Positions 4,864-12,727 of a stretch of DNA of 64,000 bases are shown in pieces. The translations under genes and the position numbers were made by a program. Every line of letters begins with the position of its first letter. Within the stretch, counting starts at the first letter, position 1. The notes beneath the pieces are model-generated. The model ran no database searches and had not been told where the DNA came from. It worked only from the letters and a program-made list of their open reading frames with translations. Source of the stretch: Acetobacteraceae bacterium (GTDB taxonomy: Bacteria; Pseudomonadota; Alphaproteobacteria; Acetobacterales; Acetobacteraceae); the NCBI GenBank assembly GCA_027451405.1, contig DAIDJM010000024.1, positions 1,411 to 65,410 on the forward strand. The letters are read 5' to 3'.

Positions 4864-5837
4864 GCGGGTCCGAGGCAAGGCGGGTGGTGGTGGTGACCGG
4901 GCTTTCGGGCGCGGGCAAGGCCAGCATCCTGCGGGTGCTCGAGGATTGCGGCTACGAGGCGGTGGACAATCCGCCGTTGCTGCTGATGGAGGAGCTGGTC
5001 GGGCGCGGCGAGGGGCCGATGGCGGTGGGCGTGGATGCGCGCAGCCGTGGCTTCGATGCGCGGGCGGTGCTCGCCGTGATGGCGCGGCTGCGCGGCATGC
5101 CGGGGCTGCGGCCGGAGCTGGTGTTCGCGGCGGCGGACGAGGCGGTGCTGCTGCGGCGCTTCACCGAGACGCGGCGGCGGCATCCGATGGCGCCGCGCGG
5201 GCAGGTGACGGACGGGATCGCCGCCGAGACGGCGATGCTGGCGCCGCTGCGCGAGGCGGCGGATTTGGTGATCGACACGTCCGAGATGCCGTTGCCGGCG
5301 ATGCGCGGGCGGGTGGAGGCGCTGTTCGGCGCGGTGCCGGGGGGTGTGCCGCCGATGACCGTGTCGCTGATCTCGTTTTCCTACCCCGCCGGTGTGCCGC
5401 GGGAAGCAGATCTGGTCTTCGATGCGCGCTTCCTGCGGAATCCCCACTACGATCCCATCTTACGGGACCGGACCGGCCTCGATCCGAGCGTTGGCGCTTA
5501 TGTCGAGGCGGACCCGGACTACGAGCCGTTCGTGGAGAAGATAACCGATCTGTTAGGTCTGCTCTTGCCGCGCTTCGTACGCGAAGGCAAGAAATACGCG
5601 AGCGTCGCCATCGGGTGCACGGGGGGGCGGCATAGGAGCGTTCATCTGGTGGAAGTTCTCGCGCGCAGGCTGGAGCCAGGCGGCGGGACACCTCCCTGGC
5701 GCGTGACAGTGGTCCATCGCGACATGAACAGGACGGCACGGCAGGGACCCGACACCGGCTTGCATCGCTGGATGGCGGAGGAGGGCGGCGCGACGAAGGC
5801 GGGGCCGCGCGAGACGGTGCAGGCGCAGGAGGCCTGA
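4860..5837 (+). CDS. rapZ: RNase adapter / P-loop NTPase RapZ (YhbJ family)
   Basis: The GTG at 4860 overlaps the hprK stop (GTGA). Motifs VVVVTGLSGAGKAS and IGCTGGRHRSV are present. Confidence 0.85.
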   Translation: MSGSEARRVVVVTGLSGAGKASILRVLEDCGYEAVDNPPLLLMEELVGRGEGPMAVGVDARSRGFDARAVLAVMARLRGMPGLRPELVFAAADEAVLLRRFTETRRRHPMAPRGQVTDGIAAETAMLAPLREAADLVIDTSEMPLPAMRGRVEALFGAVPGGVPPMTVSLISFSYPAGVPREADLVFDARFLRNPHYDPILRDRTGLDPSVGAYVEADPDYEPFVEKITDLLGLLLPRFVREGKKYASVAIGCTGGRHRSVHLVEVLARRLEPGGGTPPWRVTVVHRDMNRTARQGPDTGLHRWMAEEGGATKAGPRETVQAQEA

Positions 5838-5845
5838 TCGACGCA

Positions 5846-6334
5846 ATGATCGGTATGGTTCTGGTCACCCACGGGCGGTTGGCCGAAGAGTTGCGCAAGG
5901 CCATGGAGCACGTGGTCGGACCGCAGCGCGGCGTGGGGACCATCTGCATCGGCGCCGAGGACGATGTGGAAGCGACCCGGCTGGCGATCCAGCGCACCAT
6001 CGAAAGCGTCGATTGCGGCGACGGCGTGGTGCTGCTCACCGACATGTATGGGGGGACGCCGAGCAATCTCGCGATCTCGATGATGGAGCGCGGGGGGGTG
6101 GAGGTGATCGCCGGCGTCAATCTGCCGATGCTGGTGAAGCTGGCGAAGGTGCGGTCGCACCATACGCTCGATGAATGCGTGGGCTGGGCCGAGGCGGCGG
6201 GGCGGAAATATATCGCGGCGGCATCGCACGTGATGGGGAGCGGGGCGACGCCCAATCTGTGCAAGCTCGATCCGCGGAATGGGGCGGCGGAGCCGTCGCC
6301 AGTGCCGATTCCAGCCATCAAGGCGCAGGCCTGA
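5846..6334 (+). CDS. PTS EIIA component, mannose family
   Basis: MIGMVLVTHGRLAEEL... (phospho-His context), then LLTDMYGGTPSN and IAGVNLPMLV. Confidence 0.85.
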   Translation: MIGMVLVTHGRLAEELRKAMEHVVGPQRGVGTICIGAEDDVEATRLAIQRTIESVDCGDGVVLLTDMYGGTPSNLAISMMERGGVEVIAGVNLPMLVKLAKVRSHHTLDECVGWAEAAGRKYIAAASHVMGSGATPNLCKLDPRNGAAEPSPVPIPAIKAQA

Positions 6335-6336
6335 GC

Positions 6337-6478
6337 GAGCGTGCTTGAGAACCGGTTCTGGCGGCCGTCTGACGGCGATTTCCTGCGCTCCGGTGCTCAC
6401 GGGCATCAAGCCCGCTCCGCTCCGGTGCTCGAAAATCGCCGCCAGCCGACTCGCCATAACCGGTTCTCAAACACGCTC
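6337..6478 (+). repeat. PAL-B copy B1 (142-nt long palindrome)
   Basis: Outer arms are GAGCGTGCTTGAGAACCGGTT...AACCGGTTCTCAAACACGCTC. Core motifs are CTGGCGGCCGTCTGACGGCG, GCGCTCCGGTGCTCACGG, CCGCTCCGCTCCGG and CGCCGCCAGCCGAC. Confidence 0.85.
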
Positions 6479-6505
6479 AGAGGGCTTGAGGCGGGCTGAA
6501 GTGAT

Positions 6506-6602
6506 GGGGTTTGGGGCCTTTCGGCCCCAATGGGCTCGCCAATGGTGCGCCATTGGACCAAGCACCAATGGCGAGGGGGCAAAGCCCCTGCCCGCTGGAG
6601 GC
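6506..6602 (+). repeat. REP-A copy A4 (forward, long variant with ~40-nt internal insertion)
   Basis: GGGGTTTGGGGCCTTTCGGCCCCAATGGG, then insert CTCGCCAATGGTGCGCCATTGGACCAAGCACCAATGGCGAG, then GGGGCAAAGCCCCTGCCCGCTGGAGGC. Confidence 0.8.
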
Positions 6603-6904: not shown

Positions 6905-8699
6905 GTCGCGGCGACCCGCGCCGCCACGCGAGCGGCGGCTTTCCGGCATCGGCGTCAGCGCCGGCATCGCGATCGGGCCCATTTTCACCGCGCGCGAGCC
7001 GGCGCTCGAGGTGGCGCGCGGCACCATCGAGGCCGACGCTGTAGATGCGGAGCTGCAACGTCTTGCCGCCTCGGTCGCGCGCTCGCAGAAGCAGCTCGGC
7101 AAGTTGCGCGTGCGGCTCTCGGTGTTGCCCGAGGAAGGCGAGCAGGAAATCGCGCCGCTGATCGATGCCTATGCGCATATGCTGGGCCATTCGCGGCTGA
7201 TGCGGGAGGTGCGGCGGCGGATCGCCGAGCAGCGCGTGACGGCCGAGACCGCGGTGATGGACGAGGTGGAGGCGCTGGCCGCGGCGATGCTCGGGCCGGC
7301 GGGAGCCCGGCGCGACGACGAGGCCGAGAGCCGGCAGCGGCGGGCCGACGAGATCCGCGAGACCGGGCGGCGTCTGTTGCGCAACCTGGTGCAGGCGCCG
7401 TTTCGCAATTTCGCCAACGTGCCGCAGGGCGCGATCCTGTTCGCGGAGATGCTGCGGCCCTCCGACGCGGCGCTGATCGATCCGGGACGGATCGCCGGCA
7501 TCGCGACCGAGGAGGGCGGCGTGCAGGGGCATACCGCGATCATGCTGCGGGCGCTCGGCGTGCCGGCGGTGATGGGTGCGGCCGGGCTGCTCGCGGGGGC
7601 GAAGAGCGCGCGGCTCGCGGTGGTCGATGGCGAGGCGGGGTGTGTCACGCTGAGCCCGCTGCCGCGGACGGTTGCTGATGCGAAACAAGGGATCGCGGCA
7701 CTGGCGCGGGAGCGGCAGCGGCTCTCGCGGCTGCGGCGGCTGCCGGCCATCACCACCGATCAGGAGCCGGTGGAGCTGCAGAGCAATCTCGAATTGCTGG
7801 CGGAACTGCCGCTGGTGGCGGCCTCGGGCGCGTCCGGGATCGGGCTGTTCCGCACCGAATTCCTGTTCATGAACCGCGAGACGCTGCCGGACGAGCAGGC
7901 CCAGGCGGACACCTACCGCGCGGTGATCGAGGCGATGGATGGGGACGGGGTGACCATCCGCGTGCTGGACTGGGGCGGGGAGAAGGATATCGAGGCGCTC
8001 GCGGCGCGCGGGCTGGTGCCGGATACGCTCGATCACAATCCGGCGCTCGGCGTGCGGGGCTTGCGGTTGCTGCTGCGGCATCTCGATCTTTTCGAGACGC
8101 AACTGGCGGCGATCCTGCTCGCGGCGCGGGCCGGGCCGGTGCGGGTTTTGTTGCCGATGGTTACCAATGTCACCGAGGTGCGGGCGGCGCGGGAAATCTA
8201 CGAGCGGGTGGCGCGGCGGTTGCGCCGGCGGGGCGAGAAGCTGCCGGAAAAGCTGCCCGAACTTGGCATCATGATCGAGACGCCGGGGGCAGCGCTCGCC
8301 GCCGACGCGCTGGCGCTGGAGGCGGATTTCTTCGCGATCGGGACGAACGATCTGGCGATGTACGCGCTCGCGGTGGACCGCGCGGCGGCGGATGTGGCAC
8401 CGCTGTACGACCCGCTGCACCCGGCGGTGCTGCGGCTCATCCAGTTCGCGACCGAGGCGGCGCTGCGGCTGCGTATGCCGGTCTCGGTGTGCGGGGAGAT
8501 GGCGGCCAATCCGCTTCTGACGCCGCTCCTGCTCGGGCTCGGCATCCGCAGCTTCAGCATGAACGCCGGCTCGGTTCCGCGGGTGAAACAGGCGGTGCGG
8601 GGGGTCTCAATCGATGACTGCGCACGGTTCGCGCGGCGGGTGATGGAGCAGAGCGATCCGGAGCGGATCGCGGAGCTCGTGGGGAAGTTCGGGGAGTGA
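6891..8699 (+). CDS. ptsI: Phosphoenolpyruvate-protein phosphotransferase (Enzyme I, no GAF domain)
   Basis: GGVQGHTAIMLRALGVPAV (active-site His), FFAIGTNDL and VCGEMA. The ATG at 6891 overlaps the HPr 3' end by 14 nt. Confidence 0.85.
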   Translation: MSRTESRRPAPPRERRLSGIGVSAGIAIGPIFTAREPALEVARGTIEADAVDAELQRLAASVARSQKQLGKLRVRLSVLPEEGEQEIAPLIDAYAHMLGHSRLMREVRRRIAEQRVTAETAVMDEVEALAAAMLGPAGARRDDEAESRQRRADEIRETGRRLLRNLVQAPFRNFANVPQGAILFAEMLRPSDAALIDPGRIAGIATEEGGVQGHTAIMLRALGVPAVMGAAGLLAGAKSARLAVVDGEAGCVTLSPLPRTVADAKQGIAALARERQRLSRLRRLPAITTDQEPVELQSNLELLAELPLVAASGASGIGLFRTEFLFMNRETLPDEQAQADTYRAVIEAMDGDGVTIRVLDWGGEKDIEALAARGLVPDTLDHNPALGVRGLRLLLRHLDLFETQLAAILLAARAGPVRVLLPMVTNVTEVRAAREIYERVARRLRRRGEKLPEKLPELGIMIETPGAALAADALALEADFFAIGTNDLAMYALAVDRAAADVAPLYDPLHPAVLRLIQFATEAALRLRMPVSVCGEMAANPLLTPLLLGLGIRSFSMNAGSVPRVKQAVRGVSIDDCARFARRVMEQSDPERIAELVGKFGE

Positions 8700-8724: not shown

Positions 8725-8782
8725 GCCTCCGGCGGCCCGGGCTCTGCCCGGGACCCGCTGGGGCCGAAAGGCCCCAGACCCC
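8725..8782 (-). repeat. REP-A copy A5 (reverse); left boundary of low-GC island 1
   Basis: GCCTCCGGCGGCCCGGGCTCTGCCCGGGACCCGCTGGGGCCGAAAGGCCCCAGACCCC. Confidence 0.9.
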
Positions 8783-8852
8783 GTTTCGTTCCGGTCTGTG
8801 GAGCGTGTTTGCGGGCTCACATCTGGTTCGGGCGGGCCCAATTTTGGTTGCA

Positions 8853-8867
8853 TCGATTGAGAATCGA
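8853..8867. promoter_or_regulatory. Palindrome TCGATT-GAG-AATCGA within a possible promoter (TTGCAT-N18-TAAACT) upstream of the HslV-like gene
   Basis: Perfect 6-bp inverted repeat about 40 nt upstream of the ATG at 8907. The promoter hexamers are weak matches by eye only. Confidence 0.2.
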
Positions 8868-8906
8868 CCATTAAACTAATGGGCTCTTGGTTGGCGGAAC
8901 CTGCGC

Positions 8907-10178
8907 ATGACTGCGGAAATTGCGATAATAAATCGGCAAGCAATTGCCTTGGCTGCGGACAGCGCTGTAACGACCGGCAAAAAAAAGGTTTGGAAGGGTG
9001 GCAACAAGCTCTTCTCCCTTGGTCCTCATAATGACATTGCGGTCATGATCTATGGGGCTGCTGAGTTTTCTGGATTCCCTTGGGAAACAATCATTAAAAC
9101 CTTTCGAGTCGAGAGAGCATTTGTTGAGTTTGATACCGTTGAGGATTGCGCAACCGATCTGGTGGGCTTTTTGCGGGATAACAGATTCGTTGCTGATGAA
9201 GTTAGTGAGCGCGCGCAGTGGGGACTGATTCTTGACCAAATCGAGGAGATAAAGAGGGATTTACCCGAATACAAGTCGAAGACCGAGTTTCGTAAAGTGT
9301 TGTCCGATGCTTGTCGGAAACGCGCCCAAAAATTACAGCAGGATTTCGTGGAAATCGATTGCGCGCCGACGTTAAAGCAGTTTAGTGACTTATGCTCGGA
9401 TAAAATAATCGGGCCGTTCGCGAGGGAAGTGTTTTCTGAGGTTATAACCGCTCGGCTTTTAAAGGATTTGACGGCTGCAATATATGAGTTTTACCGCAGA
9501 AATGTGGAGTCCGACTTCTCAACGGGAGTTGTCGTCGCGGGCTATGGTAAAAAGGAGTTTTTCGGAAGCGTTTTGACGTATACGGTCGACGGGAAAGACG
9601 AGTTGTGCGTCCGGCAATGGAGATCCTTCGAGCTAAACACCAACGCGGCGGACCAGAGAAAGACCGCAATAATTCCGTTTGCTCAGAAAGATATGTTCCA
9701 GCTTTTTATGGAAGGCATTGCTGCACGCCACGTCACCTTTCTTAATGTTTTGCTTAAGGAAATGCTTGACAGTAAATCTGATGGCCTTGTTAATAGTTAC
9801 GTTATCGACCCAGACGCGAGGGTTGTTGAAGCCGCCCTGCAACGGAAAGACAACGAAACTATCTTGAAAAAATTCCGCGAGGAATTCCGGGACTATCGTT
9901 ATCGGAAAGTCATAGAACCGATAATCGACGTGGTAAGGGCGCTTCCCAAGGAAGATATGGCTGACATGGCACACGCTTTGGTGGAGTTGACCTCTCTAAG
10001 AAGAAAGGTCGGCCCTTCACTGGAGTCGGTTGGGGGTCCGGTTGACGTTGCCGTGATCACGAAGTCTGATGGACTGATCTGGATCAAGCGTAAGCACTAT
10101 TTCGATGTAAAGAATAACCAGGATTTCCTATATAGGAAAGAGACTCGGGCGGGGAGGAACGCGCATGCCAAAGTCTGA
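8907..10178 (+). CDS. Decorated HslV/proteasome-beta-like Ntn (T1-type) peptidase homologue, 423 aa
   Basis: After Met the protein reads TAEIAIINRQAIALAADSAVTTGKKKVWKGGNKLFSL, which places Thr1, Asp17 and Lys33. Later motifs are GVVVAGYGKKEFFGSVLTYTVDG and SVGGPVDVAVITKSDGLIWIKRK. This is a long ORF in AT-richer DNA. An in-frame stop at 8877 excludes an N-terminal extension. Confidence 0.6.
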   Translation: MTAEIAIINRQAIALAADSAVTTGKKKVWKGGNKLFSLGPHNDIAVMIYGAAEFSGFPWETIIKTFRVERAFVEFDTVEDCATDLVGFLRDNRFVADEVSERAQWGLILDQIEEIKRDLPEYKSKTEFRKVLSDACRKRAQKLQQDFVEIDCAPTLKQFSDLCSDKIIGPFAREVFSEVITARLLKDLTAAIYEFYRRNVESDFSTGVVVAGYGKKEFFGSVLTYTVDGKDELCVRQWRSFELNTNAADQRKTAIIPFAQKDMFQLFMEGIAARHVTFLNVLLKEMLDSKSDGLVNSYVIDPDARVVEAALQRKDNETILKKFREEFRDYRYRKVIEPIIDVVRALPKEDMADMAHALVELTSLRRKVGPSLESVGGPVDVAVITKSDGLIWIKRKHYFDVKNNQDFLYRKETRAGRNAHAKV

Positions 10179-10341
10179 GGTAACTTCGCTTGGTCGTTCC
10201 ACGCCCCCAGCGGGAAGCGATGAGCGCATAGCCAACTTTCTCAAGGCCTATAGACTGAGCCCTGAGGCAGATGACCCGGTAATTGATGCCGAGAAGGCGG
10301 CTAAGCGAATCATAGCTGCCGTCGAGGCATGTCGGTCATGA
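10165..10341 (+). CDS. Small 58-aa ORF overlapping the HslV-like gene's 3' end (not on ORF track)
   Basis: ATG at 10165 follows GGGAGG (10152..10157). It overlaps the upstream stop by 14 nt. Product: MPKSEVTSLGRSTPPAGSDERIANFLKAYRLSPEADDPVIDAEKAAKRIIAAVEACRS. Confidence 0.4.
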   Translation: MPKSEVTSLGRSTPPAGSDERIANFLKAYRLSPEADDPVIDAEKAAKRIIAAVEACRS

Positions 10342-10367
10342 TTCGGGGCGTTCCACTCTCATTGTGT

Positions 10368-10428
10368 GGGGTCTGGGGCCTTTCGGCCCCAGTGGGGTCC
10401 AGGGGCAAGGCCCCTGGCCGCCGGAGGC
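10368..10428 (+). repeat. REP-A copy A6 (forward); right boundary of island 1
   Basis: GGGGTCTGGGGCCTTTCGGCCCCAGTGGGGTCCAGGGGCAAGGCCCCTGGCCGCCGGAGGC. Confidence 0.9.
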
Positions 10429-11558: not shown

Positions 11559-12313
11559 GGGGTGGCGATACCGAGTACGTCCGTCATCGAGTAGAGGCCT
11601 GGGGCGCGGTTCTGGGTCCAGATGGCCGCGCGGATGGCGCCTTGGGCGAAGATGCGGCGGTCGAAGGCGCGGTGGGTGAGGATGATCTGCTCCTCGGCGG
11701 CGGCGAAGATGACGCTGTGCTCGCCGATTACCTGGCCGCCGCGCAGGCTCGCTATGCCGATTTCGCGACCGCGCTGGCCGGTGCGGTTGGCGTCGGCGAA
11801 GGGGGTGTCGGTCTGGTCGCGGGCGGCGGCGATGGCGCGGGCCAGGGCGAGCGCGGTGCCGGAGGGGGCATCGAGCTTCTGGCGGTGGTGCATTTCGACG
11901 ATTTCGGCGTCGTGGGTGTCGGGCGGGAGGATGCGGGCGGCAGCGGCGGCCAGCGCCAGGAGGAGCGTGACGCCGGGGGAAAAATTGGCGGCCTGGACGA
12001 CGGGGACGCGGTCGGCGGCGTGGTTCACGTCGCGTTGTTCGGCGGGGTCGAGGCCGGTGGTGCCGAGCACCCAGGCGGTGCTGGTGGCGGCGCAGGCGGC
12101 GGCGTGGTCGGGGACGGCGGAGGGGTGGGTGAAGTCGATGAGCACGTCGCAGGCGGCGACCAGGCTCTCGATGCTGCCATAGACGGCGATGCCGTCGGGC
12201 GGGCGCTCGCCGGCGAGCAGGATGCCGCCCGCGAGGGTGGCGCCCGATCCGGGCACGAGCGCGGCGACGCTGCGGCCCATGCGGCCGGCAATTCCGGCGA
12301 TCCCGATGCGCAT
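11555..12313 (-). CDS. dapB: 4-hydroxy-tetrahydrodipicolinate reductase
   Basis: MRIGIAGIAGRMG and EMHHRQKLDAPSGTA. The stop overlaps the ltaE start (ATGA). Confidence 0.9.
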   Translation of the reverse strand: MRIGIAGIAGRMGRSVAALVPGSGATLAGGILLAGERPPDGIAVYGSIESLVAACDVLIDFTHPSAVPDHAAACAATSTAWVLGTTGLDPAEQRDVNHAADRVPVVQAANFSPGVTLLLALAAAAARILPPDTHDAEIVEMHHRQKLDAPSGTALALARAIAAARDQTDTPFADANRTGQRGREIGIASLRGGQVIGEHSVIFAAAEEQIILTHRAFDRRIFAQGAIRAAIWTQNRAPGLYSMTDVLGIATP

Positions 12314-12367
12314 TGCAGGACTATACGATGCCGGGGCGCCCTGCGAAGGCCCCGGATTGTCTGAGGC

Positions 12368-12487
12368 GGAAATCGGGTCTGGTGAGTCGGCTGGCGGTGC
12401 TTCGCGAGCAACGGAGCGGAGCGGCCTCCACGGCCGTGAGCACCGGAGCGCAGCGAAGCGCCGTCAGACGGCCGCCAGACCCGATTT
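12368..12487 (-). repeat. PAL-B copy B2 (reverse orientation relative to B1)
   Basis: Outer arms AAATCGGGTCTGG...CCAGACCCGATTT. Its reverse complement aligns with the B1 core (CTGGCGGCCGTCTGACGGCG...GCGCTCCGGTGCTCACGG...CCGCTCCGCTCCG...CACCGCCAGCCGAC). Confidence 0.85.
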
Positions 12488-12727
12488 ACGACCAGACAAG
12501 GTACGTGGCGGCGTAGCCGGGGGGTGGCTACGCCGCCTTTCGCACCTCGTAAGCGGCACGGGGGGATGGCCGCTCCGTGTGCTGACCCCCATCTGGGCGC
12601 GGGGGGGAAGATTTGCAACTGTCAAGCATGAGCTTCACGGCTCTGTGTCATGACCGTCTCGTGACGCTTTTCGGCAACAGATGCCGTGGCTTGTCAGGGG
12701 AGGGGTTGTGCCCGACAAGGCGCGCCC

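Follow-up and report, generated by a model that had tools for sequence, protein, structure and literature searches.

A two-gene cassette of a proteasome homologue with multiple insertions and a conserved small partner in an Acetobacteraceae genome

Within a genome of an Acetobacteraceae bacterium (GenBank assembly GCA_027451405.1, contig DAIDJM010000024.1), a window of 64,000 nucleotides, the whole stretch of DNA that was analysed, contains an AT-rich cassette of two overlapping open reading frames (ORFs) at positions 8783 to 10367. The initial annotation took the longer ORF for a decorated relative of HslV and the proteasome beta subunit and the shorter one for a coupled partner, and proposed that the two may form a horizontally acquired regulated protease or toxin-like module. 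The locus raises the question of which peptidase family is involved, whether the small ORF is a gene, and what such a pair may be used for. We report that the cassette moves horizontally as a self-contained unit of two genes, which joins a predicted proteasome homologue to a small partner ORF, and that this ORF is a real, conserved partner gene whose position is kept across Bacteria, Archaea and phages. Among the roles weighed below, a part in conflicts of mobile elements is the one that we favour.

The peptidase gene occupies 8907..10178 on the forward strand and encodes 423 amino acids beginning MTAEIAIINRQAIALAADSAVTTGKKKVWKGGNKLFSL. The partner ORF (10165..10341, forward strand; 58 amino acids) overlaps its 3' end by 14 nt and is preceded by a Shine-Dalgarno-like GGGAGG (10152..10157, forward strand) that lies inside the 3' end of the peptidase gene, 7 nt before the partner ATG, all in agreement with the initial description of the AT-rich island. 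The guanine-plus-cytosine (GC) fraction per 300-nt window is 0.45-0.53 over 8900-10250 compared with 0.69-0.74 on both sides, and the cassette is a 45-53% GC island among housekeeping genes of approximately 70% GC. Neither ORF is a product of chance: the peptidase has more than 4,000 homologues, and the partner is kept in position at 81 of 81 loci and in sequence at no fewer than 45.

Relatives of the peptidase numbered more than 4,099 in a word-indexed search of 5.8 billion proteins and 4,791 when 1.84 billion cluster representatives were scanned exhaustively with HMMER; nearly all are 410-440 amino acids in length and named 'hypothetical protein'. Homologues of 455-519 amino acids were considered as fusions of the enzyme with its partner (Rosetta-stone proteins) and were rejected, as these carry miscalled upstream starts or low-complexity tails. 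The sole PHROG match was to phrog_5990, a phage family of 'unknown function', over the full length (E=3e-89). An AlphaFold2 model built from 37 homologues (predicted local distance difference test score, pLDDT, 87.5; predicted template modelling score, pTM, 0.82) was compared with the Protein Data Bank (PDB) using Foldseek, and the top 50 matches consisted entirely of 20S proteasome beta subunits and Anbu (probability 1.0, E starting at 8e-5, target-normalised TM 0.44-0.57). Among the predicted viral structures of BFVD, the best match was a phage 'proteasome beta type-2 subunit' (E=5.6e-5, TM 0.66). At the sequence level, the family profile ranked the Thermoplasma beta subunit first among PDB sequences with a sub-threshold E of 0.055, a single-sequence search of PDB sequences gave proteasome beta matches below threshold only, and PF00227 was the sole recurring Pfam family, detected in 13 of the 37 members, each time below threshold (best E=0.0065). 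Since the PF00227 match is sub-threshold, homology to the proteasome rests on structure and on the register of the alignment described below. The model thus predicts a fold of the proteasome superfamily, i.e. that of the threonine (T1) peptidases among the N-terminal nucleophile (Ntn) hydrolases, with a beta-subunit core, as had been supposed at the outset.

The order of secondary structure elements assigned to the model by DSSP runs from strands at residues 4-51 through helices 59-89, extra helices 98-196, strands 206-258, helix H3 (261-269), a helical hairpin (273-345), H4 (348-368) and strands 379-394 to a C-terminal helix (405-421). The two long helical insertions noticed in the initial annotation are present in this predicted structure. 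Insertion 1 (9198..9494, forward strand; amino acids ~98-196, ~100 residues) follows H1/H2 between core strands S5 and S6 and consists of helices 98-117, 125-146, 156-176 and 182-196 in a poorly conserved region, whereas insertion 2 (9723..9941, forward strand; amino acids ~273-345, ~75 residues) is a long helical hairpin (273-298 and 302-345) between H3 and H4. The most conserved block of the protein (9945..10103, forward strand; amino acids 347-399) comprises H4 (LPKEEMA..LVELTSLRRK), an (S/T)VGG motif and the C-terminal strand pair VDVAVI(S/T)K.DG.IW.KRKHYF, and aligns to beta-subunit residues 169-185.

An ungapped HMMER alignment to residues 1-42 of the Thermoplasma beta subunit places Thr2 on Thr1, Asp18 on residue 17 and Lys34 on Lys33, and the predicted catalytic codons are accordingly found at 8910-8912 (Thr2), 8958-8960 (Asp18) and 9006-9008 (Lys34) on the forward strand. 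In the same profile alignment, VGGPVDVAVI(S/T)K.DG falls on beta residues 169-185. Across 303 distinct relatives of 30-56% identity, Thr2 is conserved in all 295 sequences that cover the column, Asp18 in 299/300 and Lys34 in 301/301, together with Ser19 (300/300), Thr22 (298/301) and, at ~100%, several Gly positions and the C-terminal block; G50, a possible counterpart of the secondary residue Gly47, is present in 253 of the 303. The Thr1/Asp17/Lys33 spacing recognised in the initial annotation is borne out by this register and by its conservation. Near-invariant catalytic positions are the pattern of an active enzyme and not of a decayed scaffold, and on this pattern the large protein is predicted to be catalytically active.

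No propeptide is encoded, which had likewise been concluded from an upstream stop codon. The cassette leader (8783..8906, forward strand), in which GC begins to drop, contains TAA at 8877-8879 in the frame of the peptidase and no start codon between this TAA and the ATG at 8907, and an N-terminal extension of the window peptidase is therefore excluded. The MT start is universal among the homologues, with MT(A/T)E being the ORF start or the first possible start in most loci, and the N-terminal extensions of database entries are miscalled starts. As Thr2 directly follows Met and there is no propeptide, the nucleophile would be exposed by removal of Met alone. Methionine aminopeptidase accepts small second residues such as Thr and would presumably carry out this removal.

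Proteasome homologues of this build have already been catalogued. Fuchs, Alva and Lupas (2021) added 22 families to the known proteasome homologues, among them 'Proteasome homologs with Multiple Insertions' (PMI), and found no propeptides outside beta subunits and HslV (PMC8665760). Insertions between H3 and H4 were reported in PMI-2 to PMI-6, but only PMI-3 and PMI-4 combine such an insertion with one after H1/H2; PMI-4 is abundant (501 nr90 sequences) and ranges over Proteobacteria, Firmicutes, Actinobacteria, Bacteroidetes, the Planctomycetes-Verrucomicrobia-Chlamydiae (PVC) group, Cyanobacteria, other Bacteria, Euryarchaeota and phages (PMC8665760). The window protein as modelled has the insertion after H1/H2, with its four helices placed before strand 206-213, as well as that between H3 and H4, and has no large element at the S3/S4 position between strands 21-29 and 35-37. 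The hosts of its relatives are Proteobacteria, Firmicutes, Actinobacteria, Bacteroidota, PVC, Cyanobacteria, Methanosarcinales and others, plus phages. Having the same two insertions and the same taxonomic spread as PMI-4, the protein is assigned to the PMI type and is most likely a PMI-4 member, an assignment set by architecture and distribution and not by sequence comparison with PMI representatives (HDY66466.1 for PMI-4, OGZ26396.1 for PMI-3). The enzyme family itself is hence not new but a functional orphan catalogued in 2021, and no function or informative gene context was attached to any of the 22 new families (PMC8665760). The initial annotation had regarded both the architecture and the pairing as undescribed; the former view has to be given up, the same insertion sites being those of PMI-3 and PMI-4, whereas the latter appears to stand, as pairing with a partner is not reported in that study (PMC8665760). 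The window protein resembles PMI-4 and PMI-3 in its proteasome-like core, Thr1/Asp17/Lys33, both insertions, the absence of a propeptide and of an AAA+ partner and the lack of an assigned function, but the 58-amino-acid partner, the location in morons, satellites and plasmids and the systematic AT-richness are features not described for them (PMC8665760).

The best structural match is the 20S proteasome beta subunit (PF00227; Thermoplasma 1PMA). Its N-terminal Thr, residue 17, Thr21 and Lys33 line up with the window protein, and so do its C-terminal (S)GG..D.A.I..DG strands. The window protein is nevertheless twice the size, with ~175 extra helical residues, has neither a propeptide nor an alpha subunit, has F-(A/G)-Q in place of the GSG (Ser129) loop, lies in no conserved proteasome operon and matches in sequence below the Pfam threshold. 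HslV (ClpQ) is similarly a bacterial T1 peptidase with Thr directly after the initiator Met, and two Joint Genome Institute (JGI) records name relatives HslVU peptidase subunit; however, HslV is a compact protein of ~175 amino acids that adjoins hslU, whereas the window protein has 423 amino acids and two insertions. The window protein gave no match to the HslV models of NCBIfam and Pfam, and an hhalign comparison of the family profile with E. coli HslV, used as a single-sequence template, was not significant (E=0.28). Identity with HslV was rejected on the grounds that the protein is not compact, matches no HslV model and has no hslU or AAA+ gene nearby in 81 loci, and the HslV-like label of the initial annotation, taken in the narrow sense, was dropped. 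Anbu is a stand-alone bacterial proteasome homologue without a dedicated ATPase, has a C-terminal H5 helix and ranks with the best structural matches, but has ~240 amino acids and lacks the two insertions. Its gene belongs to a conserved operon that also contains genes of the transglutaminase-like, ATP-grasp and alpha-E types, none of which were neighbours at the family loci examined. Connectase has no H1/H2 and carries a two-helix insertion between S3 and S4, while the window protein has helices following strand 43-51 and no S3/S4 insertion; connectase is also confined to methanogens and has no paired small ORF. Membership of connectase was rejected because, in the model, H1/H2 are present and the S3/S4 insertion is absent.

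The case for the partner gene comes from 81 genomic loci, made up of 80 from Bacteria and Archaea and the window. A downstream ORF of 50-120 amino acids on the same strand, in most cases 55-88, is present in all 81 and begins -79..+34 nt from the peptidase stop, so that the two genes often overlap. A profile of 27 such ORFs, searched against 8,542 six-frame ORFs of at least 30 amino acids in these loci, gave 45 matches, all of them at the downstream position. The window partner is predicted to be helical and represents a divergent alphaproteobacterial subgroup that shares a C-terminal helix (…AAKRII…; 'AEKAAKRIIAAVEA'); a leave-out profile recovers it at E=0.017, which is marginal alone, and all 11 best matches are peptidase-adjacent ORFs. 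When searched against 5.8 billion proteins, the partner profile matched 71 clusters, nearly all of exactly 58 amino acids, among which no names, domains or fusions were found. The consensus of these clusters reads MNxxKxKKQxxxSMxEFEKKYFPKSFEKRMAEKPTDAxALGISLAKESLDKIRxQLA, with an invariant Pro. The predicted fold consists of three helices at moderate confidence (pLDDT 77). In viral loci, a small ORF with a median of 58 amino acids is present in 75 of 80, but its sequence is unrelated to the partner profile. Mean column identity is 25% in the partner versus 46% in the enzyme. The size and position of the partner are thus kept while its sequence turns over quickly, and the coupled gene suspected from the overlap in the window is found to be conserved in position and, at no fewer than 45 loci, in sequence. 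The partner is annotated in Providencia phage PSTRCR_117lys (58 amino acids) and on an E. faecium plasmid (56 amino acids, 17-nt overlap) and is left unannotated in E. coli; such patchy annotation probably explains why the partner was missed before.

Several loci depart from the simple two-gene arrangement. In the closest relatives of the window copy (L001 at 5721-6011, L002, L003 and four other alphaproteobacterial loci), a third small gene of ~92 amino acids lies directly upstream; its product ends GRRGGLKGGKARAAALTPEQRREIAQKAAAARW and has no Pfam match, and the gene overlaps the peptidase start and is absent from the window copy. In an actinobacterial metagenome-assembled genome (MAG; L017), tandem ORFs at 7311-7517 and 7514-7708 follow the peptidase and it is the second, not the adjacent one, that matches the 'FFPKS' profile, so that some lineages may have two partners. 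In five further loci (L006, L007, L019, L038 and L054), tblastn covers the whole peptidase and the longest ORF starts internally while the small ORF is intact. This suggests a frameshift or stop, and could represent either pseudogenisation of the enzyme with the partner retained or an error of MAG assembly.

Members of the family are found in 13 phage or satellite records of GenBank, on 10 plasmids and on 184 contigs of IMG/VR. In 28 of the 80 viral loci and in prophages of enterotoxigenic E. coli (ETEC), the cassette sits in the lambdoid slot RusA–NinG/HNH–Q–[cassette]–Dam–holin–endolysin and runs antisense to the late operon; a Providencia phage has it in the same Q–lysis slot in sense orientation, and Streptococcus satellites have it at the accessory end near RelBE. 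Carriage in E. coli amounts to 9 of 5,426 complete genomes. In 73/76 loci the AT content of the cassette exceeds that of its flanks (median GC difference -10 points, up to -35; Wilcoxon p=5e-14). Carriage by mobile elements and this shared composition sustain the horizontal acquisition suggested in the initial annotation, and its remark that the window lacks a partner ATPase applies to the family as a whole, there being no recurrent AAA+ or other ATPase gene near the 81 loci. No conserved larger operon was found either, the biggest cluster of neighbours covering 7/81 loci. Insertion sequence (IS) transposases, helix-turn-helix (HTH) regulators, a resolvase and a small number of candidates for restriction or defence turn up occasionally among the neighbours. 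No conserved defence island, a location also raised at the outset, was found around the chromosomal copies, whose flanks are mostly housekeeping genes.

The copy in the prophage of E. coli ETEC-2265 (L167, 3602-5058) is a tractable E. coli representative. Here, the Prokaryotic Genome Annotation Pipeline (PGAP) annotates the peptidase (WP_000123148.1) and not a 49-amino-acid ORF 24 nt downstream, so that 207 nt ahead of the gene for antiterminator Q look 'empty'. The Q–lysis region of this prophage also holds hokD and two tRNA genes.

As the overall picture, we consider it reasonably probable that the cassette is a mobile, self-contained peptidase-regulator module used in mobile-element conflict. 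In the mechanism that we propose, methionine aminopeptidase alone would activate the enzyme, which would act as an ATP-independent peptidase, or possibly a transpeptidase, without needing an AAA+ unfoldase, and the two helical insertions, instead of a gated ring, would govern access to the active site. Translational coupling would yield the partner in a fixed ratio to the enzyme. The partner may then bind the enzyme as a regulator, inhibitor or pseudo-substrate via its aromatic-Pro motif and amphipathic C-terminal helix, and may restrain or direct it. The module would serve in conflict, most likely by phage exclusion or abortive infection, or alternatively in addiction, and upon displacement or loss of the partner the peptidase would be freed to cleave a host or phage target. 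A more specific proposal, which we put forward tentatively, is that the cassette is the founding example of a widespread, hitherto unrecognised two-component conflict system of Bacteria, Archaea, phages, satellites and plasmids, in which a T1 peptidase effector is held in check by a fast-evolving partner of 58 residues.

A number of observations weigh against a role in conflict or against parts of the mechanism. Neither the peptidase nor the partner matched any model of Pfam, NCBIfam or PADLOC v2, even at E≤10, and hence no described defence or toxin-antitoxin (TA) component; searches of the literature for studies of PMI function, for defence effectors of the Ntn or proteasome-like kind and for the family accessions found nothing relevant, nor any biochemical or genetic data for a family member. 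Chromosomal flanks consist mostly of unrelated housekeeping genes and not of defence islands. All profile matches to proteasome families fall below curated thresholds, that to PF00227 not reaching the gathering score. In the active site, the loop before H3 reads F258-(A/G)-Q260 instead of GSG (Ser129), and (S/T)374-V375-G-G aligns to S169-G-G with a possible offset of one residue, Ser169 being aligned with an invariant Val beside the conserved S/T. As these secondary residues differ from those of canonical beta subunits, the chemistry could differ too. The partner has no PDB match and no recognisable fold or DNA-binding domain. At many loci, sequence similarity of the small ORF to the others is below detection, and it could there be a different gene or no gene. 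Finally, no natural fusion of enzyme and partner was found among the homologues, and their physical interaction is therefore inferred from gene order only.

Several other roles compete with this picture. The pair may act in TA-like addiction, with the peptidase as a growth-arresting toxin and the small protein as its labile, coupled antitoxin, stabilising the carrier and having no anti-phage role. We regard this as unlikely, although several features would suit it: the compact two-gene unit with overlapping frames, carriage on plasmids, satellites and prophages, sometimes beside RelBE or hok, a partner that diverges much faster than the enzyme (25% against 46% identity), several loci with an apparently disrupted peptidase gene and an intact small ORF, and, within the leader of the window copy, a perfect palindrome of 6 bp (TCGATT-gag-AATCGA at 8853-8867, 40-54 nt 5' of the peptidase start codon) that could be an operator. 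Against it, the small gene lies downstream and not upstream as in most type II systems, the partner has no ribbon-helix-helix (RHH), HTH or other antitoxin DNA-binding fold, no TA family model was matched, and many copies stand alone in archaeal or bacterial chromosomes, where addiction brings little benefit. If the cassette instead benefits the phage, by counter-defence, by processing of phage or host proteins or by timing of lysis, the chromosomal copies would be remnants. The position directly beside lysis genes in lambdoid, Providencia and Stenotrophomonas phages, the PHROG family with its full-length matches and the relatives encoded on 184 viral contigs are in keeping with such a role, but in 28 prophage loci the cassette is antisense to the late operon, which is typical of morons expressed in the lysogen and not of lytic-cycle genes, and most of more than 560 genomic loci, including those of Archaea and the window, have no phage genes nearby. 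We consider this role rather improbable.

Two further possibilities were considered. Connectase is a monomeric and highly specific ligase among proteasome homologues (PMC7980362, as cited in PMC8665760), and the window enzyme may by analogy be a sequence-specific transpeptidase or maturase that takes the small protein as its substrate, the aromatic-Pro motif FFPKS being the site of recognition or cleavage and the outcome a processed or ligated product. The invariant Pro of the partner with its nearly invariant flanking residues would fit, and the helical insertions might lie over the active site like that of connectase; yet FFPKS is absent or degenerate in the window partner and in all viral loci, the insertion sites are not those of connectase and no export or modification gene is nearby. 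This is highly improbable in our estimation. The least credible of the readings, to which we give next to no weight, is an ordinary ATP-independent housekeeping or quality-control protease beside an incidental small ORF. The suggestion of Fuchs et al. that some homologues may clear unstructured proteins without accessory factors (PMC8665760), and the frequent housekeeping genes next to chromosomal copies, speak for it, whereas the patchy and low prevalence (as in the 9 of 5,426 E. coli genomes), the systematically foreign composition, the carriage by phages, satellites and plasmids, and conservation of the small ORF far beyond chance all speak against it.

If the module does serve in mobile-element conflict, it would bring a new protease chemistry to the effectors of bacterial immunity or addiction. 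T1 peptidases would then have their first system of anti-phage defence or addiction, and the orphan PMI proteasome homologues their first function. If it does not, the partner is still a lead to the regulation of decorated proteasome homologues that lack a gated ring. PMI-4 is probably the largest of the new proteasome-homologue families, and the analysis offers three handles on it: a small partner gene that is obligate and usually escapes annotation pipelines, the life-style of a perpetually mobile AT-rich accessory cassette in a prophage slot also used by Shiga toxin and other morons, and representatives that lend themselves to experiment, from ETEC prophages of E. coli, plasmids of Enterococcus and satellites of Streptococcus. 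With these, the function of an ATPase-independent, propeptide-free relative of the proteasome becomes directly testable. The conserved 58-amino-acid partner, the moron, satellite and plasmid life-style and the insertion described next appear to be new observations.

The window cassette is framed by two units that resemble repetitive extragenic palindromic (REP) elements and their hairpin-forming doublets (REPINs). The left unit (8725..8782, forward strand) is a GC-rich element of ~58 nt with two hairpins and the core GGGGCCGAAAGGCCCC. The right unit (10368..10428, reverse strand) is inverted with respect to the left one and begins 26 nt past the partner stop codon, where it may have a role as terminator or mRNA stabiliser. 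The inverted repeat arms span 8747-8782 and 10368-10403, and the interval between these is exactly 8783..10367. The core occurs 10 times in the window (at 800, 2149, 6513, 8760, 10375, 19736, 22966, 31672, 34155 and 51375) compared with 0 expected by chance. Alignment of all copies showed an element of ~60 nt with two GC-rich hairpins, which we take to be genome-wide, and the other copies in the window include inverted doublets whose units are 40-60 nt apart. Given these doublets, and as the cassette lies exactly between two complete inverted units, it seems to have entered the spacer of such a REPIN-like doublet. The cassette carries no integrase or transposase.

By Pfam, the upstream flank encodes rapZ, EIIA(Man), HPr and ptsI (phosphoenolpyruvate-utilising enzyme) and the downstream flank a beta-eliminating lyase of the threonine-aldolase type, dapB and ribF. 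A promoter scan of the forward strand found no sigma-70 consensus promoter upstream of the peptidase gene. A terminator-like hairpin with a T-run lies at 8825-8848 (GGTTCGGGCGGGCC CAATTTTGGT), between the left repeat unit and the cassette, and could mark the end of ptsI transcription and isolate the cassette; the count of terminator-like sites in the region is not above shuffle expectation. The repeats also yield spurious intergenic ORFs of the 'PFGPKGPRP' type, for example around 6400-6600 and 12300-12600.

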